From: an uncultured Clostridium sp.
GTDB lineage: Bacteria; Bacillota; Clostridia; TANB77; CAG-508
Direction of reading: 5' to 3'
DNA: 64,000 bases
Assembly (NCBI GenBank): GCA_945865665.1
Contig: CAMBEE010000002.1
Location: 57,961 to 121,960, forward strand
Position numbers and translations under genes: made by a program. The notes below the pieces were generated by a model. It saw only the letters and a program-made list of their open reading frames with translations. It was not told the DNA's origin and did no database searches. The first letter of the stretch is position 1; each line of letters opens with the position of its first letter. Below are positions 34,172-53,792 of the stretch, one piece after another.

Positions 34172-34218
34172 GGCTCATAACCCGAAGGTCGTAAGTTTGA
34201 GTCTTACCCCCGCAACCA
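34172..34218 (+). other. tRNA-Met 3' fragment (anticodon loop to CCA): attL of the integrative element
   Basis: GGCTCATAACCCGAAGGTCGTAAGTTTGAGTCTTACCCCCGCAACCA. It has no matching 5' half or D-arm upstream, and the T-loop reads TTTGAGT (the near-invariant C56 is replaced). Confidence 0.75.
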
Positions 34219-34312
34219 AAGAATTAATACTTACAGTTTCAACGACTGTGGGTATTTTTTTATGCCTTTAAAATGGTTGCAATAATGGTTAAAAATGATA
34301 ATATTATGTCGA

Positions 34313-34335
34313 ATTGGGTAAAAATTGGGTAAAAT
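34313..34335 (+). repeat. tandem 11-mer (ATTGGGTAAAA x2), candidate integrase arm-type site, left end
   Basis: The identical 23-mer recurs at 53638-53660. A single copy is at 50131-50142. AAATACC-N2-AAATACC follows at both ends. Confidence 0.6.
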
Positions 34336-34506
34336 AAATACCTCAAATACCCGAAATTCTAATAAAAATTCAATAAAAAATTTACTATAAATTTATTAAA
34401 ATCTTCAAGTAAAAAACTTTTGGGAAAGAGATATACAATCTCAAAGTTTTTTACTTTTTAATATCGTGAAAATTTGTAATTTGTGAAAATTAGAAAAAAG
34501 TACAAA

Positions 34507-35700
34507 TTAAGACCTTGTTGGTAATAATAAGTTTTCTAGTGCATAGCCAGCTTTTCTATTATGAGAAAGTAGTGGATGCACATAAAAGTCAAGTGTAGTA
34601 CTTATTTGTGCATGACCTAGTCTCGCAGAAATTACTGCTATATCAATGTTTTGTGCAACTAGTAAACTTGCATTTGTATGTCTTAATCCGTGAAAATTAA
34701 TTACAGGTAATCCTATTTGACCAACATATTTAACAAACCATTTGCTAATTGTAGAAGGATGCATTGGTTTGCCATCTGCTTGTACAAATAACCTATCAGA
34801 ATCCGTCCATAATTCGCCGTAAATCGATTTTTGTTCTTCATACCATAACTTATATTCCTCAAGTAAAGAAATGATAAATTCAGGTATTGCAATTTCTCTA
34901 ATGGAACTTTCTGTTTTTGGAACTTTTGTGAAAACTCCCATATCTGCTAGATACTGACTAGAGCGATTAATACTGATTATTCCATTTTTAAAATCAACAT
35001 CTGTCCATTCTAATCCCATTAATTCACCTAAACGAACACCAGTAAATACTGTAAGAATGATTGCAACTTTGTACTTAGTATCTTCATTAGGTAATAGTTC
35101 TAAATTTTCTAGTAATATTTTAGTTTGCTCATCATCATAAGATCTTCTTTTTGGTTTCCTAGCTTTAGGTGGTTGAACACGTTCAGCAGGATTTGCCACT
35201 ATTAATTGCCAATAAACAGCTTTATGAAGCATTGCTCTTAATAATCTGTGATGTTCTAAGATTGTTTTACCAGATAAGGGTTTTTTAGTTTTTGCACCAT
35301 TGTTGCCTTGTTTTCTAACTAATTGAGTATCTTTTTCAAGTAAGTCATAGAATTTCATAATGTCTGTTGGTTTAATTTTGTTGATATAGAAATGCCCAAA
35401 GTATGGTAAAAGTCTTGTTTCTAGCATTCTGCAATATCTTTTATATGTTGATGGAGCAAGTTCTTTTGAACCATAATCTCTTTTCCATATTTCGGTAAAT
35501 TCAGAGAATTTAAGAGATTTACCATCAATTACTAAACCATTCTGTACTTCAGTAACAAATTTTGCTAGTTCAACTTCTGCATCTTTTTTAGTTCCGTGTA
35601 CCGTTTTTCTGTGTATCATAGGTTTTCCGTTTAGGTCAAATCCTTCAGATACTGTTAGCCTGTAACTATTTTTTCCTCTTTTTTCTATACTCCCAGCCAT
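34507..35700 (-). CDS. int: tyrosine-type site-specific integrase
   Basis: N-terminal MAGSIEKRGKNSYRLTV (AP2/SAM-like arm-binding domain). Catalytic region …GVRLGEL…HGLRHTNASLL…LGHAQISTTLDFYVH (R…HxxR…H…Y). Confidence 0.9.
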   Translation of the reverse strand: MAGSIEKRGKNSYRLTVSEGFDLNGKPMIHRKTVHGTKKDAEVELAKFVTEVQNGLVIDGKSLKFSEFTEIWKRDYGSKELAPSTYKRYCRMLETRLLPYFGHFYINKIKPTDIMKFYDLLEKDTQLVRKQGNNGAKTKKPLSGKTILEHHRLLRAMLHKAVYWQLIVANPAERVQPPKARKPKRRSYDDEQTKILLENLELLPNEDTKYKVAIILTVFTGVRLGELMGLEWTDVDFKNGIISINRSSQYLADMGVFTKVPKTESSIREIAIPEFIISLLEEYKLWYEEQKSIYGELWTDSDRLFVQADGKPMHPSTISKWFVKYVGQIGLPVINFHGLRHTNASLLVAQNIDIAVISARLGHAQISTTLDFYVHPLLSHNRKAGYALENLLLPTRS

Positions 35701-36011
35701 TACTTATTTCACCTCCTTTCAAGTATGCCTATGGGTGGGAGGAGTATTTATATACTTGTTAACAAAAATATTATATAACAATAGTTAACAAATTGCAATA
35801 GATTTCAAAAATAAACTTAAAAAATTTATAAATGTAATAAAATGTAAAAAAATGTCGAAAATTTGAAGGCTAAAATCCTTTGAAAATACTGGATTATTTA
35901 CAGAAAATATGATATAATACGACAAAATTAGTAAAGTGAATAAAAAAATAGTATAATACTTGATTTATACGTATTAAAATGAGATTTTATGATGAATTGT
36001 AAAAAGTTAAG

Positions 36012-36749
36012 GTGATAATATTGGGAAAAAGAATTGATGTAAGTGTAATAGTTAAAAGGAAATTATCATGGATGAAAAGCGATGGAAATTGCTGTATGTG
36101 TAAGCAAAAAATAGGATATTATGAAGAAGAGGGATTTATTGGAGAATTTGCACATATTGAAGATCTCCAAAAAGCAACTAAAAGATATAATCCTAATAAA
36201 TCTATATATGAATTAAATGATGAATCTAATATTTTAATACTATGTCCAACTTGCCATACTAAAATAGATAAATATAGTGAAAAATACCCAACTGAAATGT
36301 TACAGGAAATAAAAAAAGAATATGAGAATAATATTAAAATTGCCAGAGAATATGCAAATCCAGATTTATATGACAAATTCTCAAAAATTTGTAAAGATTT
36401 AAGCGAAAAATGCAATCATACAAGCATAATAGAAAAATATTATAGTATAAAAGTGGAAGAAAAAATAAATAAGAATACTTTAATCGAAATAAAAGATCAA
36501 ATTGACATGTATATGAGATATATACCAATTTTTAAAGAATTTTTAGAAACATTGTCTCAAAGTGAAAGAACAGATTTAAGGCATAATATTATAAGTTTAT
36601 ATAGACTAGAGCAATGCAAAGATATCAGTAATGTACAAAAGTTTACCAATTTAATTAGAAGAGTTGTAGGAAATGATTTTTCTAATGTTTTCCCAGCAGG
36701 GATTATTATATGTAATTATTTTGAAGAATGTGATGTGTTTGAAGTATGA
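36012..36749 (+). CDS. HNH-nuclease-domain protein with helical C-terminal domain (candidate ABC-3C effector)
   Basis: CCMCKQKI…FAHIEDL…NILILCPTCHTKID (CxxC…H…N…CxxCH treble-clef HNH). The start is uncertain (GTG 36012 or ATG 36071). The stop overlaps the next start (ATGA). Confidence 0.7.
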   Translation: MIILGKRIDVSVIVKRKLSWMKSDGNCCMCKQKIGYYEEEGFIGEFAHIEDLQKATKRYNPNKSIYELNDESNILILCPTCHTKIDKYSEKYPTEMLQEIKKEYENNIKIAREYANPDLYDKFSKICKDLSEKCNHTSIIEKYYSIKVEEKINKNTLIEIKDQIDMYMRYIPIFKEFLETLSQSERTDLRHNIISLYRLEQCKDISNVQKFTNLIRRVVGNDFSNVFPAGIIICNYFEECDVFEV

Positions 36750-36955
36750 TATTACCAAATAAAGATGTTCCTTTTGAAAAATCATTATTGAAATATAGTA
36801 TTGATGTGCTAAATTCAATAAATGGAAAAATAAAAGTAGAAGATTTGTATAAAAATACTAATATAAAAACTAAAGATATTGATGCTATTTTAGCGTTCCT
36901 ATATGCAATAAATAAAGTTGAAATAAATGATGAGTGGGTGATAAGGATTGATTAA
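36746..36955 (+). CDS. small (69 aa) protein, candidate ABC-3C middle component
   Basis: Translationally coupled on both sides: a 4-nt overlap upstream and an 8-nt overlap downstream. Confidence 0.6.
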   Translation: MILPNKDVPFEKSLLKYSIDVLNSINGKIKVEDLYKNTNIKTKDIDAILAFLYAINKVEINDEWVIRID

Positions 36956-38651
36956 AAAGATATATAGTCGAACATTAAAAACGTTTAAAACAATTGAGTT
37001 TAGCGAAGGATTTAATTTTCTTGTATCAGAGTCGGTTAACGGAAAAAGCAATAATGGAACTGGTAAAACTAGTTTAATTCAAATAATAAATTTTTGTTTT
37101 GGATCAAGTACGGAAAAAATATCTACATACGAAGACTTAAATAAAGAAGAATTTAGTGTTGACTTAGTAATTGATAATAAGACTATTACTTTATCAAGGA
37201 CCCCTCAAAATGTTACTAAAATCAAAATTATAGATAAAGAAAATCTATTAGGTGATGGTGTCTTAGAAGATGAACCTAAAACCATTGATTGGGTAAAAAA
37301 TAAATTAAACAAATTAATCTTTGGAATTGAAAATGAAGAGGTATCATTTAGAAATTTAATTTCACCATTTATGAAGAGAGGGGCGTTTGCATTTAATAAT
37401 ATATATAAAACACATGCTATGGAAACTAATATAGTAACCCAATTAAAAAACTCTTTTCTTATGAATATACCAATAGAACCTATCATAGAATTAAAAGCTC
37501 TAGTTGAAGAAAGAGAGTCATTCTTAAAGTTAAAAGAAATAAAAGAGACTGATATTATATGGAAAAAAGAAAAACAAAATACATTAAAAAGTAAAATTAG
37601 AAACTTAGATAAAGAGATAAAAGAAAATGAAGAAAAGCTTAAAAAATTTGAACTGACATTAAACGAAAAAGAGAATATAAATGATATTCATAAAATAAAT
37701 GCAGAATTATCAAATCTAATTAAAGAAAAATATATTTATCAAAACTACATAGAGTCTAATAAAAAGATTATAAACAATGATAGTCTTTTAGGTATTGAAC
37801 AAATAAGAGAGATTTTGGAAGAATCTAAATTTTTTGTTACAAATGGTGAAATGAAAACATTAGAAGAAATTCAGAAATATCATATTAAATTAAACAAAGA
37901 TAGAAATGAAAGAGTAAAAAGTTTAATAGAAAGTGATCAAAATAAAGTAAAAGAAATAGAATCAAAAATTGATGATATAAATTTAAAGAAAATAAATATT
38001 TTAAAAGAATTTGATAAAAAAGGATATTTAGATGACTATTATAGTACAAATGAGATCATAACTAATTTAAAAATTGAGAAAAGTGATTTAGAAAAACAAT
38101 TAGATGTATACATAGCATTAAATCAAATAGACACTAGTTGTAAAGAGAAAGTAAAATCAATAATAAAAAAGTTAGAAAAAAATGATAATTGCAATAATTT
38201 TAAGATTATAAATAATAAGTTTAAAGAATATATAAGAAAAATCTTTGATGAAGATGCTAAACTTATTATGGAATGTAAAAATACAGGAAATTATGCTACA
38301 AGAGGATATAATTATGATTGGGAAATACCTAGAAAATTAAGCAGTGGATATTTAAAAGGTTGTATTGCAGTATATGACTTAGTATTAGCAGACTCTAATA
38401 GTGATAGATTTCCAATATTTTTAATACATGATAGTGTAGTATTTGAATCTACAGATAAACAATATGTAGCGAAATTTCTAAATTTAACAAATGAAATCAT
38501 AGGAAATAATAGATTTCAATATATATGCTGTGTTAATGATGATCAAATAGTTAAAAATGAATTAAATAAAGCTGTATTAAAAAAATATGAAGAAGCACAA
38601 AGAATTTCACAAGAAGACACTTTATTTGGAATTAATTTTGGTAATAGATAA
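36948..38651 (+). CDS. SMC/Rad50-like ABC ATPase with coiled-coil insert (DUF2326-like; candidate ABC-3C ATPase)
   Basis: Walker A SNNGTGKTS at the N-terminus. ~250 aa of K/E-rich coiled coil. LSSGYLKG (signature-like) and FPIFLIHDS (Walker B) near the C-terminus. Confidence 0.75.
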   Translation: MIKKIYSRTLKTFKTIEFSEGFNFLVSESVNGKSNNGTGKTSLIQIINFCFGSSTEKISTYEDLNKEEFSVDLVIDNKTITLSRTPQNVTKIKIIDKENLLGDGVLEDEPKTIDWVKNKLNKLIFGIENEEVSFRNLISPFMKRGAFAFNNIYKTHAMETNIVTQLKNSFLMNIPIEPIIELKALVEERESFLKLKEIKETDIIWKKEKQNTLKSKIRNLDKEIKENEEKLKKFELTLNEKENINDIHKINAELSNLIKEKYIYQNYIESNKKIINNDSLLGIEQIREILEESKFFVTNGEMKTLEEIQKYHIKLNKDRNERVKSLIESDQNKVKEIESKIDDINLKKINILKEFDKKGYLDDYYSTNEIITNLKIEKSDLEKQLDVYIALNQIDTSCKEKVKSIIKKLEKNDNCNNFKIINNKFKEYIRKIFDEDAKLIMECKNTGNYATRGYNYDWEIPRKLSSGYLKGCIAVYDLVLADSNSDRFPIFLIHDSVVFESTDKQYVAKFLNLTNEIIGNNRFQYICCVNDDQIVKNELNKAVLKKYEEAQRISQEDTLFGINFGNR

Positions 38652-38674
38652 ATAGTAATGATTCAACATCATTA

Positions 38675-39718
38675 CTATTTATCTAACCACTTATCAAATT
38701 CTTTATAAGTTTTCTCATTAGATCTAATGGCATCCATAAATTCTTTAGCTTCTTTTTTCCAATTTTCATAATCAATCTTATAAACTTCTATATCAGGATT
38801 ACGCTTTACTAGCATTGCTTTTTTTGCATAAATCTTACGATATTTACCATAAACAATTTCATTTTCTTGCTTAATTCTTTGAGCAATTTGGTTTCCGATA
38901 TCTCTACAAGTTTGTTTTCCTTTGAATAAATTATTACAGTAATTAATGCGTGGATTATCTGTTATAAAGTATTTACCACAATTTTTACATTTCTTAATAA
39001 GATATTTATTATTAAGTACGAATTGAAACAATGTAACATATAAAATTCCATAAATGTTTTCGTTATTAGTGCTATAATTTGGTTCAATTTCATAACAGAA
39101 TTTAGACTTAAAGAATTTTATTAAATCTTTTTCTGTATTTCCTTTAATATCAGAAATAGTTCTAAAAGAAAAGCCTTGTGGCATAGAAAAATGATTATTT
39201 ATAAATCTATCAAGTTCCTTAAAATGAGAATTATAATAAATATAAAATCTTATTTTTGTACTAAAATCATTTATTTCTTTAATGTTATTAAGGTTAAAAA
39301 TATAATCAACAAATTTTGATAATATTTCTTGACCATGTTTTGAGTCTTTTTTTATTTCTTCATAATATTTTTTAAATAAATTTTTTACTTTACTAAAAGA
39401 ATAAAATTTATTAATTTCAAATTTATTTATATCTTCTTCTCCAATATATATTATGTACGAAGTGAGAAACTTAGTAAACCACATAAAACATTCATTAAAA
39501 TTATCAAAATCACAATTTAAGAAAGAGATGAGTTCACTACAAAGTGGTTGTATGTTAGTTATAGTATCAATAGTAAAATAGCCAGTATCTCCATCTTTTA
39601 AATCATAATATCCTGGTTTTGATGATTTTGTTTTTCCATATAAAAATGCCTTATGGGTGAATTCTTCATTTGTTGAAACAAAGATATTTATAGGTTCATC
39701 ATATTCTAATTTATTCAT
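38675..39718 (-). CDS. hypothetical protein with C-terminal zinc-ribbon (CKNCGKYF…NYCNN…CRD)
   Basis: 347-aa ORF with RBS GGAGG, transcribed divergently from the xis-rep operon. Candidate element regulator, from position only. Confidence 0.6.
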   Translation of the reverse strand: MNKLEYDEPINIFVSTNEEFTHKAFLYGKTKSSKPGYYDLKDGDTGYFTIDTITNIQPLCSELISFLNCDFDNFNECFMWFTKFLTSYIIYIGEEDINKFEINKFYSFSKVKNLFKKYYEEIKKDSKHGQEILSKFVDYIFNLNNIKEINDFSTKIRFYIYYNSHFKELDRFINNHFSMPQGFSFRTISDIKGNTEKDLIKFFKSKFCYEIEPNYSTNNENIYGILYVTLFQFVLNNKYLIKKCKNCGKYFITDNPRINYCNNLFKGKQTCRDIGNQIAQRIKQENEIVYGKYRKIYAKKAMLVKRNPDIEVYKIDYENWKKEAKEFMDAIRSNEKTYKEFDKWLDK

Positions 39719-39785
39719 AATTCCTCCGTTAACAGTTTATAAATTTATTTAAAGTTAACCTGCTATCAAAATAAACCAAAAAGTA

Positions 39786-39814
39786 TTTACAAAGTTAACT
39801 ATTGACAATATAAT
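39786..39814 (+). promoter_or_regulatory. consensus sigma-A promoter of the xis-replication operon, with GTTAAC palindromes
   Basis: TTTACA (39786-39791), 17-nt spacer, TATAAT (39809-39814). GTTAAC occurs at 39728, 39754, 39794 (inside the spacer) and 39821. Confidence 0.65.
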
Positions 39815-39867
39815 ACAAATGTTAACAAAAGTCAATACTAATTTTCAAAAAGACAGGAGGTGATATT

Positions 39868-40065
39868 ATGGAATTACCAAAGATTCAAAGGACAACACTA
39901 ACAATGAAAGAAGCAGCAGAGTATTTAGGTGTATCTTATTGGTTAATAAATCAATTAGTAAGAAGAAAGCAAATACCATGCTCTAAAGTTGGTGGAAAGT
40001 ATTTATTTAGAGTACAAGCGCTAGATGAATATTTAAAAAATATGGAACAAAAATCTATAAGTTAG
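39868..40065 (+). CDS. xis: excisionase-family (MerR-like HTH) DNA-binding protein
   Basis: LTMKEAAEYLGVSYWLINQLVRRKQIPCSKVGGKYLFRVQALDEYL is the classic excisionase/DNA_binding_excisionase pattern. Confidence 0.85.
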   Translation: MELPKIQRTTLTMKEAAEYLGVSYWLINQLVRRKQIPCSKVGGKYLFRVQALDEYLKNMEQKSIS

Positions 40066-40111
40066 ATTACAAAGAAAGCGAGGAAAGGAGGATATTTATA
40101 GTTTACAATGG

Positions 40112-40603
40112 TTGAAAATAGAATTAAAAATATTTTCAAATAGGAAAATTCAAATACTGTTAAGAGAGCCAGATGGAGATACATATTTTAGAGTATGGAT
40201 TCAATTATTAATTATTGCTGTAGAATGCAATAGAAATGGAAAATTAGTAATAGGCAATAATAAACAAATGACAATAGAAAATTTTTCAAAGATTATGGGA
40301 AAATCTAAGAAAAAAATTGAAAAAATTATTCAAAAATTTCTAGAATTAAATATGCTAATTGTCGAAGATGGAGCATATAAAATTAAAAATTGGGACAAGT
40401 ATCAAAGCATTGAACCGTATGAAAAATATAAAGAACAAAATAGAATTAGACAACAAAAATATCGTGAAAAGTTGAAAAGTGAAAAAGAAGAAAGTAACGT
40501 TACAATAACGTTGGATAACACACAAGAAGAAAATAAGATTAAAAATATATTAGATAAAGAAGGAGATGAGAATAGAAGTGGATTTAGAAAATGTGAATTT
40601 TAA
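40112..40603 (+). CDS. phage replisome organizer N-terminal-domain protein
   Basis: LKIELKIFSNRKIQILLREPDGDTYFRVWIQLLIIA matches the WIKL..DFF.d.Ki family signature. The start codon is unclear (TTG 40112; the frame is open from 40061). Confidence 0.65.
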   Translation: MKIELKIFSNRKIQILLREPDGDTYFRVWIQLLIIAVECNRNGKLVIGNNKQMTIENFSKIMGKSKKKIEKIIQKFLELNMLIVEDGAYKIKNWDKYQSIEPYEKYKEQNRIRQQKYREKLKSEKEESNVTITLDNTQEENKIKNILDKEGDENRSGFRKCEF

Positions 40604-41420
40604 AGTTATCACCAATGAAGGTGCAAAATGTGGATTTTGCAATAAAAAATTAAAGCCAGTAGGATTAAGTTATCTTTATGCAAATGTTAATCACGATATG
40701 GTAGAATATGAAAGGTGTGATTGTAGTGAAGCAATTGCATTTTGGAGACAATATGATTCAAAGCAAAATGAAAAAGAAAAACAAAGAAAGTATAGAGAAA
40801 TTATAAATAAAATATATAAGGATGGCAGTATAAAAAAGAAATTAAAATATTGTAATTTTTTAAATTTTGATAGATTTAAAGATAACCAAGAAGTATTAAC
40901 AACATTAATAAAATATACACATTTATGCATAGAAAACAAAGTTAAAGACGGAATTATTATACATGGAAGTATAGGATATGAAAACACTCATTTAGCAGCA
41001 AGTATCGCTAATGAGATTATTAGAAATAAAAAAATTGCATTATTGGAAAGGACTAGTTCTATAATAGATAGAATAAAAGAATCTTTTAATAAAACTGTTA
41101 CGACAGAGTCAGAAATTATGGAACTTTATTCTAATGTTGATATGTTAATTATCGATGATTTTGGGAGTGAAACAATAAGTAAATGGGCTTTAGAAAAGTT
41201 GTATAGAATTATTAATAATAGATATGAAAACGAGTTACCAATAGTAATTACAACTAGATATACAAGAGAAGAATTGATGGAGAAAATTGCTATTGAAAAT
41301 AGGAAATTAGCAGAAGAATTTATACAAATTTTATACAAAATGTGTTATGGAATTTCACTCATAAAAAATGATAGAAATGCAAAAGAAAAAGCTAGCAAAA
41401 GCGACCAAACTAAATGCTAA
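40566..41420 (+). CDS. DnaC/IstB-like AAA+ helicase-loader homologue with degenerate Walker A
   Basis: N-terminal Cys cluster (CGFC…CDC). HGSIGYENTHLAASIANE occupies the place of GxxGxGKTHLAxAIANE (40965-40988). Walker B MLIIDDFGSE is intact, as is sensor IVITTRY. Confidence 0.75.
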   Translation: MRIEVDLENVNFKVITNEGAKCGFCNKKLKPVGLSYLYANVNHDMVEYERCDCSEAIAFWRQYDSKQNEKEKQRKYREIINKIYKDGSIKKKLKYCNFLNFDRFKDNQEVLTTLIKYTHLCIENKVKDGIIIHGSIGYENTHLAASIANEIIRNKKIALLERTSSIIDRIKESFNKTVTTESEIMELYSNVDMLIIDDFGSETISKWALEKLYRIINNRYENELPIVITTRYTREELMEKIAIENRKLAEEFIQILYKMCYGISLIKNDRNAKEKASKSDQTKC

Positions 41421-41474
41421 CTTAATCCAAAATCTAAAAATATTATAATATGTTTTTAAACAAAAGTAAAGCAA

Positions 41475-41513
41475 AAAAGTTCAAGTTTTTATTTTAGAAA
41501 TTTGAACTTTTTT
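41475..41513 (+). terminator. hairpin terminator after the replication genes
   Basis: aaaaagttcaa-N17-ttgaacttttttt. Confidence 0.5.
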
Positions 41514-41734
41514 GAAAATATTTTGAAAAAATTTATATCAAAAATATCCCTCGGAGAGCCAAAAAGGGTATTAGGGCATTTTGCCCTAAACAGCCAAAAG
41601 GGTGTCAAAACACCACGCTGGCGAATATTAGGTACTAAAAAATACTACCTATATTCAAGCAAAATAAATTTTGCTAACTATCAATGCTATGTAGACTAGC
41701 ATTAATAAAATTAAAAAAGTAGGAGTGATGAAAA

Positions 41735-42358: not shown

Positions 42359-42451
42359 AAATAATATAAATATAGGAAAATTTGTTGTGAAAAAAGTCGT
42401 TTTGTGATATAAAATATACTAGAGAAATTGTAAATCAAAGGAAATGATAAT

Positions 42452-42769: not shown

Positions 42770-42796
42770 AAGTAATAATTAGTGGGGGCAATTATT

Positions 42797-44743: not shown

Positions 44744-44865
44744 GAATTAATAATTATTGAAAAAAAGGTAATAATATAATATACTTATAATGATGATAAA
44801 CATATTTTATAAAATTTAATATAATTAATAATAGAAGATTTTAAGAATTATGGGGAGATATTATT

Positions 44866-45881: not shown

Positions 45882-46699
45882 TATTACAATTTGAAGAAAA
45901 AAAGATTGAAGTGAAAGAAGAGTACGTAAAAACTGTGACTTCTAAATCTACAGGAAATGAATTAAATACATATAGATTTAAAATCAGAGTGGCTGGAAAA
46001 GAAAAATTTGAAGATTTTAAGAATAAAATGAATATGTATAAAGAAAAATTTATTTCTCAAATTGATGATAACGGAAATATATTGGCTAAATATAATGTAG
46101 GAACATGGAGTTATAGATACTATAATGAATTTGATTCAGAAGATACGAATTATTTGTGTGATGTAGAAATTATACAAGGTGAAGAATTAAAAACTGATAT
46201 TATAATTATTGAAGGAATAGAAAATGAAGTACTGAAATACAAAGAAGAATTTGACAATTATAATAAAGCTATTGTTATTAGAGCTATAATAAAAAATACA
46301 GAAGAACAAAGAGAAAAAATAAATAATGCTATTGGAGATAATAAATATTTTAAAGTAAAAAGACCAGGAATAAATAACGAAATATTAGAAATGCGATTTG
46401 GAAAAACAATATGGTCTAAACATGAAGGCTATATAAAAAGAAGTATTGTTCTAGTCGAAAAAAAATATGATGAAAATGACAAATTAAAAAAACCGTTTTT
46501 TTGGCCAGAATTAACCAATATGATGGATATTATGGCTAAAAATACTGTTTATATAGAAAAGTTAGAGGAAACATTGAAAAAAAATAATATGATAACTGAT
46601 GAAAATATAAAAGAAATAAAGATACAAGTGGAAAAAGAATATAAGAATGTATATAGACAATACTATCTAGTAGAAGATGTAGAAGAAGACTTTGAATAA
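45878..46699 (+). CDS. hypothetical protein (273 aa), third gene of the PanA operon
   Basis: 4-nt ATGA overlap with the upstream gene. Strong RBS AAGGAGGG 7 nt upstream. No recognisable motif. Confidence 0.65.
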   Translation: MILQFEEKKIEVKEEYVKTVTSKSTGNELNTYRFKIRVAGKEKFEDFKNKMNMYKEKFISQIDDNGNILAKYNVGTWSYRYYNEFDSEDTNYLCDVEIIQGEELKTDIIIIEGIENEVLKYKEEFDNYNKAIVIRAIIKNTEEQREKINNAIGDNKYFKVKRPGINNEILEMRFGKTIWSKHEGYIKRSIVLVEKKYDENDKLKKPFFWPELTNMMDIMAKNTVYIEKLEETLKKNNMITDENIKEIKIQVEKEYKNVYRQYYLVEDVEEDFE

Positions 46700-46834
46700 T
46701 ATTACAGTTAGATAGAAACAATTATACAACTTGTTTCTAATATGGAACAACAATAAATATTATAAATAAAAACTTTCTTTTTTTGGAAATAACATGATAT
46801 AATATTATTAGATTAAAAAAGGAGAGTTTTTATT

Positions 46835-47770
46835 ATGTTAGGAGAGAAAATAAAATTATGTAGAGAAAGTAAAAATATGACTCAGGTTGAAATTGCAGAA
46901 ATATTGGGGGTAAAAGCAGCCACTGTTTCTAAATATGAGTCTGGAACTTTAGAACCTAATATTGAATCATTGAAAAAGTTAGCTGAATTATTTGATATTT
47001 CAATTGATGAGTTATTAAAAGAAGATGATTTTGATATATCTAAAATAAATATTTTAGAAGTATTAAGAGAGCAAAAAAATATGAAATTAAAAGGAAATTT
47101 GTATCACAATACTCAAATTACATTTGCATATAATACAAATCATATTGAAGGAAGTAAGCTCACAGAAGATCAGACTAGATATATTTATGAAACTAACACC
47201 TTATTGGCAGAAAAAGATTCTATTACAGATTTAGATGATGTATTAGAAACGGCTAATCATTTTAAATTAGTTGATTATATGTTAGATATAGCAGGTAAAA
47301 AGTTAGCTGAAAAGATGATAAAAGAGTTTCACAAAATATTAAAAGAAGGAACATCAGACAGTAGAAAAGATTGGTTTGCTGTTGGAGATTATAAGAAATT
47401 ATCAAATGAAGTAGGGGGACTAAAAACTACAGATCCTAAAAATGTTGAGCGAGATATGAAAAAATTATTAGAATGGTATGAGTCTTTGAAACAAGTTACA
47501 ATAAATGAAATAATAGAATTTCATGCTAAATTTGAAAAGATACATCCGTTTCAAGATGGAAATGGGAGAATCGGTAGATTAATTGCATTTAAAGAATGCT
47601 TAAAGAATAATATAGTACCGTTTATTATTCTAGACAAAGATAAATTGTTTTATTATAGAGGGTTAAACCAATATCAAACTAATAAAGAAAAAGGATATTT
47701 AATAGATACTTGTTTAAATGCACAGGATCAATATACAGAAATGATTAAATATTATGTTGGAAATAAATAA
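46835..47770 (+). CDS. XRE-family HTH + Fic (AMPylase/Fido) domain protein
   Basis: N-terminal LGEKIKLCRESKNMTQVEIAEILGVKAATVSKYESG (HTH_XRE). Fic motif HPFQDGNGRIGR at 47543-47578. Confidence 0.9.
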   Translation: MLGEKIKLCRESKNMTQVEIAEILGVKAATVSKYESGTLEPNIESLKKLAELFDISIDELLKEDDFDISKINILEVLREQKNMKLKGNLYHNTQITFAYNTNHIEGSKLTEDQTRYIYETNTLLAEKDSITDLDDVLETANHFKLVDYMLDIAGKKLAEKMIKEFHKILKEGTSDSRKDWFAVGDYKKLSNEVGGLKTTDPKNVERDMKKLLEWYESLKQVTINEIIEFHAKFEKIHPFQDGNGRIGRLIAFKECLKNNIVPFIILDKDKLFYYRGLNQYQTNKEKGYLIDTCLNAQDQYTEMIKYYVGNK

Positions 47771-47777
47771 ACTAAAG

Positions 47778-47826
47778 AAAAGCAAAATAATAGTAATTAG
47801 ATATTACAGAATTATTTTGCTTTTTT
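47778..47826 (+). terminator. rho-independent terminator after fic
   Basis: 10-bp stem gcaaaataat/attattttgc with a structured loop, followed by TTTTTT. It is duplicated at ~50333-50382. Confidence 0.65.
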
Positions 47827-47921
47827 GATAATAAGAGACAAGTTACGACAAAATTTTCAAATAGTAAGTGCTATATTAGATGTTAAATTATCGATAAAGA
47901 TATGTAATAGGAAGGAAGTAT

Positions 47922-48713
47922 ATGTTTACAAATAGGGAATTAGCTATAATGATATGGGTCAATGTGTTTATATTGTATTGTTTATTAAAGCCAGATGTAA
48001 GGCAATCGTTTAAGAATGTAATAAAAGCAACATTTAACAAAAAATTAGTAATGTTATATATTATTATATATACATATATGGCATTTTGTATATATATTCT
48101 TTATAAGGTAAGATTTTGGAATATAAATTTATTGAAGGATACTCTTATATGGCTTATAACTATACCTATATTCTCGATAATAAAAGCAGAAGAAGATAGT
48201 AAAAAATACTTTAGAGAGACATTAAAGAGTTGTTTTGAAGTTTATATCTTAATAGAATTTATAGGAGTTAATTATCCTTTTAGCTTATGGATCGAATTAA
48301 TTATCATTCCAATTGTATTATTATTTTCATTAGTAGGAGAATTTGGAGAAAGATTCGGAGGAACGAAGGAAGTTTCTACTTTTGCATATTCTATAGTTAT
48401 AATAATATCTTTTGCTGCATTTGTACATTCAATAAGGCTAATGATTAATGATATACAAAATATTTTTACTGAAGACACTCTAAAAAGTATAATTTACATA
48501 CCAATATTGACTATAATATATATGCCAATGACATATTTAATATTAGTTTTTATGAAATATGAAACATTTTGGGTTAGAGTAAAGTGTAAAAACTATTTAT
48601 CAAAAAAAGATAAAAGAATGGTAATGTGTAAAGCAATAAAAAATTGCAAACTAAATCTTAATAAGATAAAAAATATAAAGTTAGAAGAATATATAAATAT
48701 TATGGAGAGATAG
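47922..48713 (+). CDS. hypothetical multi-pass membrane protein (263 aa, ~6 TM)
   Basis: RBS AGGAAGGA. Strongly hydrophobic segments throughout. No family recognised. Confidence 0.7.
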   Translation: MFTNRELAIMIWVNVFILYCLLKPDVRQSFKNVIKATFNKKLVMLYIIIYTYMAFCIYILYKVRFWNINLLKDTLIWLITIPIFSIIKAEEDSKKYFRETLKSCFEVYILIEFIGVNYPFSLWIELIIIPIVLLFSLVGEFGERFGGTKEVSTFAYSIVIIISFAAFVHSIRLMINDIQNIFTEDTLKSIIYIPILTIIYMPMTYLILVFMKYETFWVRVKCKNYLSKKDKRMVMCKAIKNCKLNLNKIKNIKLEEYINIMER

Positions 48714-48715
48714 AT

Positions 48716-49651
48716 ATGAAAAATTATGGAAAATGTCATATATGTGGAAAAAACACACAATTAACATTCGAGCATATTCCACCTGAAAAAGCAAACAATT
48801 CTGACGATGCACATGCAATATTAGGTGATACATTGATGAATCATATAGGAAGTACAAGGCAACCATGGGATTTAACGGGATTAAGATATAAAAATTTGCA
48901 ACGAGGAATGGGAGGATATACATTATGCGAAGCTTGCAACAATAATACTGGAGCATGGTATGCAGATGATTATATTAATTTCGTTAATACTATAGGATAT
49001 GTACTAACAAATAAAGTAGATTTAGAAAAAGTTAAAGCAGTAAAAATTGAATTAAAAGAGATGCATCCTTTAAGAATTTTTAAGCAGATAATTTGTATGT
49101 TTGCGTCTACAATGCATGCAGAATTTTTTGATGCACATCCAGCACTAAGAGATTTTATTCTCAATAGAGAATCTACGAATTTTGATCCAAAAAAATATAG
49201 AATTAGCATGTATATCTTAAAAGAACCCCGTTGTGGTTGGTCTGGGTTAAATGTTATGATGTATGGTAATGGAAAGATTAAAACAGTAGCATATATGGAT
49301 TTATATCCAGTAGGATTTATATTAGAAATAGATCCAACAGAAGATACATTTGAATATGTATCTGATATTACAAATATGGGTACTGATTTTACATATAATG
49401 ATAAAGGAATATTAGGAGTTACATTAAACATCCTAGAAAGAAATACTTTGTGGGTAGGAGATTTTAGAAGTAAAGAGGATATTTTAAAGCAAAGTAAAAA
49501 AAGTAGAATTGATACAATAGAAATAATTAAAGATGAAATGAATAGATTAAATATAAAAGAAGAAAAATACAAAAGTGTTATTGATGAATATATCAATAAT
49601 CAAATAAGTTCAAGTGAATTTTTAAATAGGATTGAACAGATAAAAGGCTAG
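48716..49651 (+). CDS. hypothetical protein with N-terminal HNH-like treble-clef motif (311 aa)
   Basis: CHICGKNTQLTFEHIPPEKANN…YTLCEACNNNTG (CxxC…EH…N…CxxCN). It starts 3 nt after the membrane-protein stop, with RBS GGAGAG. Confidence 0.65.
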   Translation: MKNYGKCHICGKNTQLTFEHIPPEKANNSDDAHAILGDTLMNHIGSTRQPWDLTGLRYKNLQRGMGGYTLCEACNNNTGAWYADDYINFVNTIGYVLTNKVDLEKVKAVKIELKEMHPLRIFKQIICMFASTMHAEFFDAHPALRDFILNRESTNFDPKKYRISMYILKEPRCGWSGLNVMMYGNGKIKTVAYMDLYPVGFILEIDPTEDTFEYVSDITNMGTDFTYNDKGILGVTLNILERNTLWVGDFRSKEDILKQSKKSRIDTIEIIKDEMNRLNIKEEKYKSVIDEYINNQISSSEFLNRIEQIKG

Positions 49652-49723
49652 AATTGACTCGTCTTTTATTGTATTTATTGTTTTAAGATATTTTTTCACA
49701 AATTTGAAAAAATGCATAAAAAT

Positions 49724-49757
49724 CCAAAGTTTTTTCAAAATTTTGAAAAAACTTTGG
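49724..49757. repeat. perfect 34-bp palindrome (17+17), probable bidirectional terminator
   Basis: ccaaagttttttcaaaa|ttttgaaaaaactttgg, located between convergent coding regions. Confidence 0.6.
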
Positions 49758-49770
49758 AAAAGATATTTAA

Positions 49771-50064
49771 TTAATTATCAAAACTACCACCAATTAGCAG
49801 CAGCCCATCGAAAAAAACATTCCTATAATATTTCTCATTCCAATAATCAAGATATTTCATAAAATCATCATACAATTTATCAAGTTGAGACTGAACAAAC
49901 TGCTTATTATCCTTAGAAACATTACGAAAAATTTTCTCGCAAAACTTATCAAAATTCAAACTATCTTTATAATCCTTATCAGAAAGTTGACAAAGTAAAG
50001 ACTCCTATCTAAACATTAACCAATCTTCCAAAATATCATCATTAACTTCTCTTAAATTATTAAT
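49771..50064 (-). pseudogene. decayed copy of the small gene at 53256-53549
   Basis: The DNA aligns with 53256-53549. The start codon is changed (CAT->AAT at 50062) and there is an in-frame stop (…EDWLMFR* versus …KDWLEFREET). Only the C-terminal 62 codons remain open. Confidence 0.75.
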
Positions 50065-50233
50065 AATCTAAAATTTCCTAAAAATATCTCTTATAAGAGC
50101 TAATTTTGTAAGAACAAACGTATCATACCCATTGGGTAAAATCTTCTCCAAAAATACCTAAAAAGATACAAATGTTCTACAAATCAAAAATCTTGTAAAT
50201 ACCTAAATACCAACAAAAACACGTCAAACCTTG

Positions 50234-50437
50234 CTAATAAAGAAAAAGGTTATTTAATTGATACTTGTCTAAATGCTCAAGATCAATATATATAAATTAT
50301 TAAATACTATATAGGTAATAAATAAACAAAAGAAAAGCAAAATAATATTAATTATATATTACAAAATTATTTTGCTTTTTTGATAGAAAATGACAAGATT
50401 CGACAAAAAAATACTAGTAAAAGTTGTAGAATAAAAA
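50234..50437 (+). repeat. duplicated fic 3' end + terminator + downstream leader (copy of 47679-47880)
   Basis: ctaataaagaaaaagg(t/a)tatttaat(t/a)gatacttgt… through the gcaaaataat…attattttgctttttt terminator and …gacaag(a)ttcgacaaaa aligns with the end of the intact fic gene. Confidence 0.8.
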
Positions 50438-50449
50438 AGGGGAATAAAA

Positions 50450-52570
50450 ATGAAAATTGATTTGCATTGTCACACAAAAAGAACGAAGATAGGGGATCCT
50501 GAAACTAGAAATGTTACTTTAGAATTATTTAAAGAAAAGATTATTAATAGTAATGTTAGAATTGTAGGAATAACAAACCATAATCTATTTGATGTGCATC
50601 AATATAATGAATTAAAGGAAAGTGTTACTGGATTTGCACAAGTCTGGCCAGGAATTGAACTAGATGTAAAATACAAAGGTAATATAGGACATTTAATTGT
50701 TATATATAATCCAGAAAAAATAAGTGAATTTGAAATTCTGCTGAACAAATTAATAAATGAGCAAACTCCTGATGAAGTAGAAATAGATTTAAATGAATTT
50801 GTAAAGGATTTCTCAACTAAAGATGCTATATTTATTGCACATGACTACAGAAAAGCACAAAGTTTTAGCAGAGAAATGATTGAGATATTAAAGAGCGGAA
50901 TTACCGAAAAATATAGAATATTTTCAGAACCTAGTAGTTTTAAGAGTTTGAGTATTATGTTAGATAATGGAATACAAGCAATCTTGGGAAGCGATATTAA
51001 AGATTGGACCAATTATCCAAATTGTGAATTGCCTGAATTAAAGTTAGATGTAGATAGTTTTGAAAAATTAATTTTATTAGCCAAAAAGGATAGAGCTACC
51101 ATAAACACATTATTAAATAAAAAAGAACAAAAAATAAAAGAAATTCAAATAAAGATTAATGATTCTAAAAAAGAAAAAACAAAGATACCAATATATAATG
51201 ATATAAATGTGATTTTTGGAACAAAGGGAACAGGTAAAACAGCGGTTTTAGAAGGATTAAAGAACAAATACTTACAAGATGGAAACAGATATTCTTTCTA
51301 TAGAGCTTCAGATGTAGATGAGGTAATGGACCAAAAATTAAAATTTAGCGATACAGAAAGAACCAATACCAATTTAGATATCAGTTTTGTCAAAGAAATG
51401 ATAGAATTTATAAAAAATTGGGAAGAAATTTTACCAACATCCTTAAATGACTATATTGAATATTCAAAGACAAAAAAGAACAACAAAAATAAAGGAAGAT
51501 TAAAGATTACAGCCTTAAAGACAACTTTTAAAAATAATAGTAAGTTAAATAAACTAAAAAATGAATATCAAATAGTAAAAGATATTATTAGTCAAATAGA
51601 AGAATATAATTTAGAAAAATATTTAATACCAGAAGATGCAAAAGTATATAAAGAAATTAATAATAAAATAAAAGAAAATTGTTTTTCTTTATTAAAATTA
51701 GAACATATTGATTATTATTCAAATAAATTAAGTAATGCTAGTATAAAAATAATTAAACAAAAAGCTGATTTATGTACAACGTCAAAGTCTTTACCGGATA
51801 GTACAGGTTTTTTGGAATTTTCACAGAATTATTTAAATTTGAAAAATCATATTCAAAACTTTAAAAAGTGTATGGATGGTAAAACGGAAAAAAGCAGAGA
51901 AAAAATAGGAAATCTTGATGAAGGTAAAGAGGTATATTTATCTGTTGAACATAGGATATTCAAAAGTAAAGTTAAAGAATTTAAATATGGGCAAAATATC
52001 AGTGATTTAAATAAAATATGTAATTTAATTTTGGGATTAGATAAAAATTTTAAGGTAGAACTCAGTGAGAAAATAGATAATATAAGGGAAGAATTTGAAA
52101 AAGTTAATTTAAAAGCAAAAGATTTCATTGGAATAAAAAAACAGTATGAAAATAAACTAGGTGAATACTACAAGCCTTCAGATGGAGAAAAAATAATGTT
52201 AATATTGCATAAAAAAATATTCGAAGATGCAGATGTATATTTATTAGATGAGCCAGAAAGAAGCTTAGGAAATACTTTTATAAATTCTGTAATTGTACCT
52301 AGGATTGTAGAATTAGGAAAAATGGGAAAAACAGTGATTGTGGCAACACATAATGCTAATATAGCAGTTAGAACATTACCTTTTACCTCAATATTGAAAT
52401 CTTATGAGAATGGAAAATATAAAACATATATTGGTAATCCTTTTACAAATGAGCTGATAAATATAGAAGATAGTAATGATACTAAGAATTGGAAGGATGA
52501 AAGTATTAAGGTATTAGAAGGTGGAAAAGAAGCTTTTGATGATAGGAGAATAGTGTATGAATCAAGATAG
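50450..52570 (+). CDS. PHP-phosphoesterase domain fused to an ABC/OLD-like ATPase (706 aa)
   Basis: N-terminal IDLHCHTKRT…GITNHN (PHP metal-binding His motif, 50459-50476). Walker A GTKGTGKT. C-terminal PSDGEK (signature-like), VYLLDEPERSLG (Walker B/D-loop), VATHNANI (H-loop). Confidence 0.8.
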   Translation: MKIDLHCHTKRTKIGDPETRNVTLELFKEKIINSNVRIVGITNHNLFDVHQYNELKESVTGFAQVWPGIELDVKYKGNIGHLIVIYNPEKISEFEILLNKLINEQTPDEVEIDLNEFVKDFSTKDAIFIAHDYRKAQSFSREMIEILKSGITEKYRIFSEPSSFKSLSIMLDNGIQAILGSDIKDWTNYPNCELPELKLDVDSFEKLILLAKKDRATINTLLNKKEQKIKEIQIKINDSKKEKTKIPIYNDINVIFGTKGTGKTAVLEGLKNKYLQDGNRYSFYRASDVDEVMDQKLKFSDTERTNTNLDISFVKEMIEFIKNWEEILPTSLNDYIEYSKTKKNNKNKGRLKITALKTTFKNNSKLNKLKNEYQIVKDIISQIEEYNLEKYLIPEDAKVYKEINNKIKENCFSLLKLEHIDYYSNKLSNASIKIIKQKADLCTTSKSLPDSTGFLEFSQNYLNLKNHIQNFKKCMDGKTEKSREKIGNLDEGKEVYLSVEHRIFKSKVKEFKYGQNISDLNKICNLILGLDKNFKVELSEKIDNIREEFEKVNLKAKDFIGIKKQYENKLGEYYKPSDGEKIMLILHKKIFEDADVYLLDEPERSLGNTFINSVIVPRIVELGKMGKTVIVATHNANIAVRTLPFTSILKSYENGKYKTYIGNPFTNELINIEDSNDTKNWKDESIKVLEGGKEAFDDRRIVYESR

Positions 52571-52862
52571 TAATAAAATAATAGTGGAATTAAAAAAAGA
52601 AAATAATGATGATGTTTTGGAATTTCAATTCAAAAATAAAATACTAATTAATTTTAATAAATCAGATAATAACGACATAAAAGAAGTTTTTAAAATTGTT
52701 TTAGAAGAATTAACAAAATCTATTTTTAATTTTGAATTAAAAATTGCTGATGGATATGATGTGGACTTATATAAGGAAGTGGTAACTACATATATTGAAG
52801 AATTAAATGAAGAGATAGAGCAACTCGTAAATTCTGAAGAATGGAAAGAAATATATGATTAA
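52557..52862 (+). CDS. small acidic protein (101 aa) coupled to the PHP-ATPase
   Basis: RBS AGGAGA 7 nt upstream. 14-nt overlap with the end of the ATPase gene. E/D-rich, with no recognised motif. Confidence 0.6.
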   Translation: MNQDSNKIIVELKKENNDDVLEFQFKNKILINFNKSDNNDIKEVFKIVLEELTKSIFNFELKIADGYDVDLYKEVVTTYIEELNEEIEQLVNSEEWKEIYD

Positions 52863-52923
52863 AAGAATATATTAACTATAAAAGGACAAAATGATTATTT
52901 TGTCCTTTTATAAGTTATATTAA

Positions 52924-53229
52924 TTATTGACGTATTCCACTTCCACCAAGACTCATGATAACTAAATTCAAACAATCTGCAAATCCTGCTTGATAATATT
53001 TTTCATTATAAAAAGATGAAAATTCCAAAATCTGTTTATAAAACTTTTTAAATTCATTAGAAACATACTTATAGTCTTGTCCAGAAATATAACTTAAAAT
53101 CTGATTCTCAAATGAATCAAAGTCTAATTTCTGATTGCTTTTCATATTTTTAAATCTATCAAATTCATTATCTCTAAAATTAATCCATTGTTTTATTAAA
53201 TTTTCAACAAATTCTTTATTTATTTTCAT
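52924..53229 (-). CDS. small helical protein, paralogue of 53256-53549
   Basis: The start is set at MKINKEF (RBS GGAGG). It shares …NEKYYxxGFxD(C/G)xxL(V/I)… with its neighbour. Confidence 0.6.
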   Translation of the reverse strand: MKINKEFVENLIKQWINFRDNEFDRFKNMKSNQKLDFDSFENQILSYISGQDYKYVSNEFKKFYKQILEFSSFYNEKYYQAGFADCLNLVIMSLGGSGIRQ

Positions 53230-53255
53230 ATCTAAAACCTCCAATACTAATACAA

Positions 53256-53549
53256 TTATTCTCCAAAGCATCCTCCAATCAATTCAACCCCATCGCAGAA
53301 ACCATTCCTATAATATTTCTCATTCCAATAATCAAGATACATCATAAAATCATCATACAATTTATCAAGTTGAGACTGAACAAACTGCTTATTATCCTTA
53401 GAAACATTACGCAAAATCTTCTCGCAAAACTTATCAAAATTCAAACTATACTTATAATCCCTATCAGAAAGTTGACAAAGTAAAGTCTCCTCTCTAAATT
53501 CTAACCAATCTTTCAAAATATCATCATTAACTTCTCTTAAATTATTCAT
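53256..53549 (-). CDS. small helical protein (element right-end module)
   Basis: The start is set at MNNLREV (RBS AGGAGG). The ORF-track N-terminal extension has no RBS and runs into the att region. Confidence 0.6.
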   Translation of the reverse strand: MNNLREVNDDILKDWLEFREETLLCQLSDRDYKYSLNFDKFCEKILRNVSKDNKQFVQSQLDKLYDDFMMYLDYWNEKYYRNGFCDGVELIGGCFGE

Positions 53550-53637
53550 AATATAAATCCTCCTAAAAATTAAAATTTTTCTTAATAAAAATATCTCTAA
53601 CAAGAGCCAATTTTGTAAGAACAAACGTACCATACTC

Positions 53638-53660
53638 ATTGGGTAAAAATTGGGTAAAAT
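53638..53660 (+). repeat. tandem 11-mer (ATTGGGTAAAA x2), candidate integrase arm-type site, right end
   Basis: Identical to 34313-34335. Confidence 0.6.
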
Positions 53661-53777
53661 CATCTCCAAAAATGCCCTAAAAATGCACGAATGTTCTATA
53701 AACCAAAACTCTTGTAAATACCGAAATACCAACAAAAATTCTAATTTTCACAAAACTACAAAAACCGGTCAAACCTC

Positions 53778-53792
53778 GCTCATAACCCGAAG
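53778..53792 (+). repeat. attR core (GCTCATAACCCGAAG)
   Basis: Exact 15-bp repeat of 34173-34187. The flanking sequence is not tRNA-like. Confidence 0.7.

Follow-up and report, generated by a model that had tools for sequence, protein, structure and literature searches.

What occupies positions 34173–53792 of this 64-kb window, a stretch of contig CAMBEE010000002.1 from an uncultured Clostridium sp., how did it arrive there, and what does it carry? All coordinates below are positions in the window, and L-numbered loci are the related contigs or loci compared with it, mostly contigs of metagenome-assembled genomes (MAGs) or metagenomes. The 19.6-kb segment very probably belongs, as one copy, to a large family of integrase-borne islands that inhabit uncultured gut Clostridia, serve as exchangeable carriers of anti-phage systems and probably replicate themselves.

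The limits of the element are set by the 15-nt sequence GCTCATAACCCGAAG, which occurs exactly twice in the window, at 34173–34187 (attL core, + strand) and 53778–53792 (attR core, + strand), with zero copies expected from 100 shuffles; the exact 15-bp direct repeat reported in a preliminary description of this DNA is therefore sound. The minimal core common to the whole family is the 14-mer CTCATAACCCGAAG, which every related locus has at its attL. To the left, L014, L019, L021 and L057 match the window down to 34172–34174 and each continues into a different flank. On the right, L013, L142, L097 and L162 match the window up to exactly 53792 and diverge beyond it; L013, from another sample, carries window 43255–53792 at 99.66% identity and then different DNA.

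An empty attB site, proposed earlier as a check, exists as a single contig. This 1,287-nt contig from gut-metagenome run X9 spans window 33701–34187 and then reads CCCACCCATAAAAAAT, which is window 53793–53808; it is the empty site, the left flank and a single repeat copy running straight into the right flank. The chromosomal site itself, a non-tRNA “orphan core” between a 332-aa gene and a double-NUDIX gene, is thus unoccupied in a related strain and has been used repeatedly: L001 and L178 are element lineages with right arms differing from the window’s, inserted at the same position upstream of the double-NUDIX gene, so that at least three lineages (window, L001, L178) with three different right arms have used it. 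Presence of the same 19.6 kb at this locus in all relatives, which would have spoken against mobility, is contradicted by the X9 contig and by these two lineages. Since homology breaks at the cores, the empty site exists, the same element is found at other sites and one site serves three lineages, the element is discrete, site-specifically integrating and mobile, and its site is reused.

The repeat corresponds to the part of initiator tRNA-Met that runs from the anticodon loop through the 3′ side of the anticodon stem to the variable loop, and the junctions show that the integrase recombines at the 14-nt core of that gene. At 34172–34220 (+ strand) the element carries an initiator tRNA-Met 3′ half, one mismatch from the family consensus, with no 5′ half upstream and with a hairpin and T-run downstream at about 34235–34262. 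The T-loop of this half reads TTTGAGT where relatives have TTCGAGT (a C-to-T change); ARAGORN and Rfam call no tRNA at 34100–34260, and the upstream flank is not tRNA. A rebuilt intact tRNA at the integrase-proximal end is absent from the window copy but present in 14 relatives, and the window copy therefore lies at a secondary site. Among the 66 sites with core and 3′ half in the DNA compared, these 14 have an initiator tRNA 5′ half, reading CGCGGGGTGGAGCAGTTGGCAGCTCGTCGGG, directly upstream. They show that the canonical attB is the initiator tRNA gene, where the element supplies a replacement 3′ half and terminator and the tRNA is rebuilt. The remaining sites are tandem junctions, with a homologue of the 97-aa right-end gene adjoining (8 loci), or non-tRNA sites. 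L107, which joins right arm, core, tRNA half and int, was considered as a circular form and rejected; because backbone genes are missing upstream, it is read as a tandem junction.

Like the window copy, most relatives sit at non-tRNA orphan cores. A metagenome scan with the right arm and core recovered 83 junctions, 22 followed by a tRNA 3′ half and 61 (about 25 distinct sites) without one; CCCGAAG is read in 81 of the 83, and tRNA identity stops cleanly after AAG, AAGG, AAGGTC or further on. Unoccupied orphan cores are present in the chromosomal flanks of L005, L006 and L058. Significant similarity to the tRNA half is seen in 10 of 51 non-canonical flanks, which form a series of growing decay; the L178 version of the flank, CCCACGCA versus CCCCCGCA, is only suggestive of such similarity (p=0.08). 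By analogy with tycheposon islands, orphan cores are inferred to be relics of earlier integrations, a history that is unproven for the window’s own site.

Several observations accompany the target site. Element-borne tRNA halves from L003 to L093 show the T-stem variants GTAAG/CTTAC, GATAG/CTATC, GTAGG/CCTAC, GATGG/CCATC, GCAAG/CTTGC and GAAGG/CCTTC; because these changes are mostly compensating, they suggest that from time to time the half belongs to a functional tRNA. The sole tRNA gene in the window is of initiator tRNA-Met type (30953–31028, − strand). Its 5′ half differs from that of the target tRNA at two positions, but with an anticodon stem of CAGGG/CCCTG the gene reads CTCATAACCCTGAG and so has no integrase core. 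A CCCAAAG tRNA variant is found in relatives near their elements; such variant tRNAs may escape integration. On the minus strand of L005, two cores lie 4.3 kb apart at 15872 and 11527, one unoccupied and the other an element attL, both preceded by the same ~45-nt sequence (gggggtaaacataatagaaaaaac..aaaatga.tttatt), a flank type also seen in L021, L027 and L058. The seven genes between these cores may form an integrase-less cassette using the same core. C-poor, purine-rich left flanks were considered as a site signature and dropped, being largely an effect of strand composition.

The recombinase is a 397-aa tyrosine integrase at 34507–35700 (− strand; Pfam Phage_integrase 2.6e-24, Phage_int_SAM_3 1.6e-14; phrog_1 2e-77). 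It adjoins attL as described before, 320 nt from the left repeat, and has homologues at 80–99% identity in 91 fetched loci. Putative arm-type integrase sites lie inside both ends. The left arm (P′, 34313–34415, + strand) contains two copies of ATTGGGTAAAA, two of AAATACC and AAATTCTAATAA-type repeats, and the same motifs recur in the right arm (P, 53586–53777, + strand), which has two copies of ATTGGGTAAAA (53638–53660) and AAATACCGAAATACC (53716–53730). The shared motif ATTGGGTAAAAATTGGGTAAAAT was correctly noted inside both ends (34313–34335 and 53638–53660); the AAATACC pair, earlier given a 2-nt spacer throughout, has that spacer on the left (AAATACCTCAAATACC, 34336) and a 1-nt spacer on the right (AAATACCGAAATACC, 53716). 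An additional exact copy of ATTGGGTAAAA at 37288–37298, within the slot-1 ABC ATPase gene, could be due to chance. The phage-type recombinase with arm-type sites and a cargo of multi-gene operons are not the features of an integron, and repeat scans of the element reported no attC-like repeats.

The window copy is more than the one simple element it was first taken for. Its right-end module (53254–53738) recurs internally at 49769–50219 with 84–92% identity, and the relic right end of a first element extends over 49769–50233. There the gene of the 97-aa protein is a pseudogene (49771–50076), its translation showing a lost start and an in-frame stop, and repeat comparison finds a decayed arm with ATTGGGTAAAA at 50131 and AAATACCTAAATACC at 50197. 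The pseudo-core CTAATAA follows, and then a duplicated Fic 3′ end and terminator derived from a second element (50234–50408, + strand; 175 nt, 87% identical to 47679–47853). At the relic junction GTCAAACCTTG meets CTAATAAAGAAAAAGG, compared with GTCAAACCTCG meeting CTCATAACCCGAAG at the true right end. These repeats show that the window copy is, on internal comparison, a composite of one element and the right-hand part of a second. In the simplest history, two related elements would have stood in tandem, and recombination between the junction core and CTAATAA in the Fic gene of the second would have deleted that element’s integrase and backbone. This internal arrangement recurs in L013, which lies at another site, so the composite is now mobile as a single unit. 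The right-end duplication, the tRNA origin of the repeat and the tRNA-Met 3′ half were all missed in the preliminary description.

The element belongs to a family defined by a common backbone. More than 60 relatives share int, the DUF6076 gene, xis, a replisome organiser and a DnaC-like gene, often with the 207-aa gene, and a 97-aa gene at the right end. Searching backbone genes with tblastn across all fetched loci gives 91 loci for int, 65 for xis, 63 for DUF6076, 61 each for the replisome organiser and the DnaC-like loader, 39 for the 207-aa gene and 36 for the 65-aa gene. In ten contigs (L003–L012) the integrase is the same variant, P0056, which has 98% identity to that of the window; these contigs share the order int, slot 1, DUF6076 (− strand), xis, replisome organiser, DnaC-like, 207-aa gene, slot 2. 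A scan of species-representative genomes with the integrase found 80 loci, all in uncultured Clostridia, Erysipelotrichaceae or Bacilli MAGs of animal guts. The MAGs come from humans, mice, rabbits, goats and a water deer, and metagenomes add pig and sheep gut. Integrase homologues at E<=1e-20 exceed 4,800 among 8,000 candidates scored, hundreds of them 98–99% identical. In four gut metagenomes, backbone depth is 5–30 times cargo depth.

Pfam and PHROGs bear out the backbone listed earlier (int, a divergent zinc-ribbon protein, xis, a replisome organiser and a DnaC-like gene). The DUF6076 zinc-ribbon protein (CxxC...C...C; 38675–39718, − strand; Pfam 1e-11), a putative master regulator, is divergent from xis (HTH_17/Tn916-Xis-like; 39868–40065, + strand; 76–100% identity across its loci). 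The replication module (40112–41420), which matches phrog_4880 and phrog_50, consists of the replisome organiser (Phage_rep_org_N; 40112–40603, + strand) and a DnaC/IstB-like helicase loader (40566–41420, + strand), both supported by Pfam and PHROGs. A 65-aa protein (41502–41699, + strand) and a 207-aa protein with a predicted C-terminal winged helix (41735–42358, + strand) follow, and backbone homology with L021, L023 and L057 stops at 42409–42423. The AlphaFold2 (AF2) model of the 207-aa protein (predicted local distance difference test, pLDDT, 67) gives only generic winged-helix matches (E>0.2). This gene, earlier set apart as the one hypothetical, is thus a backbone gene, conserved in 39 related loci. 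Two paralogous genes at the right end, encoding 115 aa (52924–53271, − strand) and 97 aa (53256–53549, − strand), are backbone as well, and a helix-turn-helix (HTH)-Fic gene recurs across the family; PHROGs and other family scans give no match for the two right-end proteins. A homologue of the 97-aa protein adjoins the right arm in 76 of the 83 metagenome junctions. PDB sequence searches returned no match.

A control module can be proposed from the variation of the DUF6076 gene. The divergent control region between DUF6076 and xis (39719–39867) contains four GTTAAC sites (39728, 39754, 39794 and 39821), that is, 4 of the window’s 13 within 99 bp, and two further GTTAAC palindromes, putative operators, lie upstream of int (35758–35789). 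DUF6076 alleles are only 26–93% identical among elements whose integrases are 80–99% identical to the window’s; in most relatives with a divergent DUF6076, int is still 92–94% identical (83–97% overall). The GTTAAC cluster is conserved with the allele: all 34 relatives with a DUF6076 at 52% identity or more have it, and 12 of the 15 at 32% or less lack it. The int-upstream sites change together with DUF6076 across the intervening variable slot 1. On this covariation, DUF6076 is proposed to be a master repressor acting at GTTAAC. Its AF2 model is confident (pLDDT 84.6); the fold search found no PDB match and one weak BFVD match, and no paper mentioning DUF6076 was found in the literature searched. 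The C-terminal domain is shared with a Ruminococcus phage and with a protein of gut Siphoviridae. The 13-kb “Bacteriophage sp.” record MT836066.1 was set aside as a relative, only this C-terminal domain being in common. An annotated DUF6076 domain-containing protein is also encoded at 31761–32048 of NC_017177.1 (C. difficile BI1; a 300,869-bp plasmid record in PLSDB), its C-terminal part 31% identical to the window protein; given that annotation, the domain reaches cultured Clostridioides.

Three cargo slots are bracketed by this backbone, and their contents differ between relatives. Slot 1 (36012–38651, + strand) holds a Lamassu/ABC-3C-type trio: an HNH effector (HNH_2; 36012–36749), the middle component MC7 (36746–36955) and a DUF2326 ABC/SMC-like ATPase (DUF2326/AAA_23/SMC_N; 36948–38651). 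PADLOC matches are PDC-M68A (1e-26), PDC-M68B (9e-72) and LmuB (6e-13). Stop and start codons overlap, giving the effector–middle–ATPase operon of Lamassu/ABC-3C. The cassette is complete elsewhere only in L023; L002, a 2.4-kb contig, spans the first gene alone. Across 65 elements slot 1 has 43 distinct contents of 0.5 to 5.3 kb. When the largest protein of each of 20 sampled types was scanned, 14 matched PADLOC families, including a CBASS cyclase (3e-163), DolB (1e-116), Drt2 (5e-124) and RmrA (8e-146), and further PycC, HEC-01A/AbiL, AbiLi, DitA, PDC-S56, PDC-S58 (twice), PDC-S65/caspase, Ppl and a ThsA-like protein; about a third match nothing known.

Slot 2 (42452–46699, + strand; Pfam, PADLOC, NCBIfam) contains a MazG-like protein (42452–42769; homologues in 11 loci), a NERD and Schlafen-group-3 helicase (42782–44743; PDC-S41 2e-19, Nhi 4e-12; in 7 loci), a SocA/Panacea antitoxin-domain protein (44866–45297; Pfam, NCBIfam SocA) and 194-aa and 273-aa proteins with no significant domain, all on the + strand. 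Relatives use the slot for restriction-modification systems of types I, II and III and for a MutH/Dcm pair. Slot 3 is defined by the HTH-Fic gene (46835–47770, + strand; Pfam Fic, HTH_3; PDC-S04 3e-107, also SoFic) at its left edge, because in 14 of the metagenome junctions with a 97-aa gene Fic lies 1.1–3.5 kb upstream of that gene. Slot 3a (47922–49651, + strand) encodes 263-aa and 311-aa proteins that have no significant family match and occur only in the window and L013. Slot 3b (50450–52862, + strand), a 706-aa ABC/AAA ATPase with a 101-aa partner (PDC-M49A 3e-30; NCBIfam TrlF-family ATPase N-terminus 1e-30), is also found in L013 and L142. Most window cargo over 42782–52862 otherwise occurs only in L013, the exceptions being the MazG-like and NERD–Schlafen genes and the slot 3b pair in L142.

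The gene content thus supports, at the level of family matches, a cargo that is mostly of defence type and swapped among relatives. Adjacent genes match defence families at candidate level and different systems occupy the same position in relatives, as in a defence hotspot. The earlier statement that all but one of the remaining genes fall into six nuclease, ATPase or toxin cassettes is right about the predominance of defence-type genes and overstated in extent, because eight open reading frames (ORFs; 65, 194, 273, 263, 311, 101, 115 and 97 aa) have no significant domain. The PADLOC scan that it had suggested matches several adjacent genes, to candidate (PDC) families rather than validated systems.

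How such an island might operate can be pieced together from its genes. DUF6076 would repress int and the divergent xis–replication operon through the GTTAAC operators; once repression is lifted, Xis and Int would excise the island, and the replisome organiser and DnaC-like loader would recruit the host helicase so that the circle is copied. The cargo would protect the host from phages through the Lamassu/ABC-3C trio, the MazG-like protein and NERD–Schlafen helicase, a Panacea-type toxin–antitoxin-like module, the HTH-Fic protein and the PDC-M49-like ATPase pair. Passage from cell to cell in helper-phage capsids would complete the cycle, a step put forward tentatively and with a lean towards doubt.

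Certain observations weigh against parts of this account. No circular form or attP junction was seen when Logan contigs were compared with the whole element, only noisy short-unitig joints, because the material consists of assembled contigs, which break at the highly repeated core; the evidence for excision is comparison between different samples only. The window’s own flank has no similarity to the tRNA half (p=0.9), and decayed tRNA halves only partly explain the perfect 14-mer at non-tRNA sites. The element contains no convincing iteron array as a replication origin. No replacement operator motif was found in elements without GTTAAC, and the link between DUF6076 and GTTAAC is a correlation that could reflect linkage. 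Most cargo matches are to PADLOC candidate families, whose function is predicted only.

Two routes of transfer can be considered. In a true phage satellite, a helper phage would lift repression, and the island would excise, replicate and be packaged in helper capsids while its cargo acts against competing phages. The layout of int, divergent regulator, xis and phage-type replication fits this, as does the lack of structural genes in Pfam and PHROGs searches. DUF6076 alleles are hypervariable, as are those of the Stl regulator of Staphylococcus aureus pathogenicity islands (SaPIs), and the domain’s occurrence in a Ruminococcus phage and a gut Siphoviridae protein points the same way. The size falls within the 7–20 kb range of satellites (PMC13376191), and the defence hotspots resemble those of P4 and of phage-inducible chromosomal islands (PICIs) (PMC9122126). 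However, Pfam and PHROGs detect no terS, capsid, capsid-size-redirection, head-tail adaptor or cos/pac feature, although novel genes could escape detection, and the 207-aa backbone protein offers only a generic winged-helix model. The backbone has a single match in 2.9 million IMG/VR contigs, inside a 55-kb contig, and is missing from every run labelled as a viral library; nor was any phage identified as a candidate helper. This is an arguable reading that falls well short of an even chance. Spread without phage particles, by natural transformation after excision, conjugative mobilisation through an unrecognised oriT, or vesicles, agrees with the absence of packaging genes, with the natural competence by which S. 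thermophilus islands of similar make-up move (PMC13376191), and with tycheposons as a comparable tRNA-targeting, array-forming and cargo-carrying class (10.1101/2020.12.28.424599). It must be set against a replication module of phage type and the lack of any Pfam or PHROGs match to a relaxase, coupling protein or type IV secretion system (T4SS) in any ORF, oriT being outside the search. It is a serious contender, if somewhat less than evenly probable.

Readings in which the segment is no longer, or never was, an element fare worse. A decayed prophage that has kept its integrase and att sites would explain why integrase, excisionase, replisome organiser, DnaC-like and MazG-like proteins all have phage homologues; yet a compact backbone without structural genes recurs in more than 60 loci of many species, the ends are precise, an empty site exists, the element stands at several sites, and decay would not yield so uniform an architecture, which makes this explanation very improbable. 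That the segment is a fixed chromosomal defence island whose repeats are coincidence or assembly artefact is hardly credible: only the AT-rich, repeat-prone sequence favours it, against 15-mer chance matches that are not expected, the empty-site contig, occurrences at other sites and three lineages at one site. The satellite-like label of the preliminary description stands as to layout, size and cargo logic, and Pfam and PHROGs scans of all ORFs agree with it in detecting no virion or conjugation genes; satellite status is not established, no packaging or hijack gene having been found. Integrase, att sites, regulatory and replication modules and the want of a full virion set are as in satellites; packaging hijack is not in evidence. 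Because it has neither packaging or capsid genes nor relaxase or T4SS genes, the element is filed as a satellite-like integrative replicative island, with “satellite” used as an analogy. A bolder proposal makes the family a class of phage satellite new to science, living in uncultured gut Clostridia: it would hijack helpers without a recognisable packaging gene, be controlled by a hitherto uncharacterised DUF6076 repressor at GTTAAC, and seed and reuse orphan cores to build integron-like defence arrays. This proposal is speculative and on balance unlikely.

The chromosomal surroundings have features of their own. The left flank was considered as an IS3-type transposase gene splitting a tRNA, and this was rejected: Pfam finds ASCH, NUDIX and the 332-aa gene there and no transposase. 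Exact-protein look-ups of the 332-aa and ASCH genes gave no match. A promoter-like repeat of 52 nt, which includes the palindrome ATCCACAA...TATAAT..TTGTGGA, occurs at 32178–32229, 54894–54945 and 57269–57320. Its copies, which lie to either side of the element, precede chromosomal genes, namely a NUDIX gene, an acyltransferase gene and the ORF at 57367, and the repeat may be a shared operator. The NUDIX genes flanking the insertion site (32243–32542 and 53957–54256) are 80% identical over 300 nt. The same neighbourhood in L003, L005 and L006 has arrays of NUDIX, ASCH, TehB and Lactamase_B paralogues, some beside orphan cores. In L178, a ~240-bp insertion at 7175–7410 with long terminal inverted repeats (ggttacagttcattaggaaaaatccctgaaatacctgtgaatgata...) lies between att and NUDIX and is absent from the window; it looks like a miniature inverted-repeat transposable element. 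The window also contains very long ORFs at 8476–21000 (4,174 aa) and 22324–27177 (1,617 aa), the latter region with a G+C content of 0.32–0.35 compared with about 0.27 elsewhere.

That satellites and integrative islands carry defence hotspots is well known. Four features appear to be undescribed: the backbone itself, the target together with the widespread recourse to orphan cores, the family’s abundance in uncultured gut Clostridia and the DUF6076/GTTAAC control module. The family is abundant, occurring in at least 80 of the species-representative genomes scanned, and its three slots provide a well-bounded catalogue for new anti-phage systems in bacteria not yet grown. It is also a concrete example of how accretion at relic att cores lets a defence island grow, and it offers two proposals that can be tested, DUF6076 with GTTAAC as a regulator and a minimal attB of 14 nt.

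Among known systems, the element resembles PICIs, including SaPIs, and P4-like satellites in having an integrase beside one att site, a divergent regulator facing an xis–replication operon, its own replication module, no virion genes, a size of about 15–20 kb and variable hotspots filled with anti-phage systems (PMC9122126). Unlike them, it has no terS, cpm, ppi, sid, psu, delta or capsid genes that could be found, a replisome organiser and DnaC-like loader in place of a primase–helicase, and as putative regulator a DUF6076 zinc-ribbon protein with no known relatives. The S. thermophilus islands (StCI) are 7–20 kb long and carry integrase, regulatory and replication genes, no structural genes, and phage resistance (PMC13376191). 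They share the Firmicutes host and the island layout without structural genes, a likeness by description of host, size and gene classes; their excision, induction by a phage protein and transfer by competence are shown experimentally, whereas the present family is known from sequence alone.

Slot 1 has the gene order of Lamassu systems, namely effector, small middle component and SMC/ABC-like ATPase (PMC10586767), and the MC7, LmuB and PDC-M68 matches agree with this. Unlike canonical Lamassu it has an HNH_2 effector, and its DUF2326-type ATPase fits the PADLOC candidate model better than canonical LmuB.

Tycheposons of Prochlorococcus use tyrosine recombinases and tRNA targets and stack in tandem so that older elements are “pushed” inward; islands are left strewn with partial tRNAs and degenerate remnants, and tycheposons include both PICI-like and cargo-bearing forms (10.1101/2020.12.28.424599). 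The present family shares the tyrosine recombinase, the tRNA-gene target and the tandem stacking with partial tRNAs and remnants left behind, again a likeness by description. The host phylum, target tRNA and cargo (nutrient genes there, defence here) differ, and unlike tycheposons the present family is very often found at orphan cores without any other tRNA sequence. In streptococci, integrative and conjugative elements grow by accretion into cis-mobilizable elements (CIMEs): a second element recombines into a resident att site, one recombination module is lost, and outer att sites bound a composite with a relic att inside. Unlike CIMEs, the window copy has no conjugation module, and its internal junction is the core-like CTAATAA in the Fic gene rather than a true att site; like them, it is a composite with outer att sites and an internal relic end.

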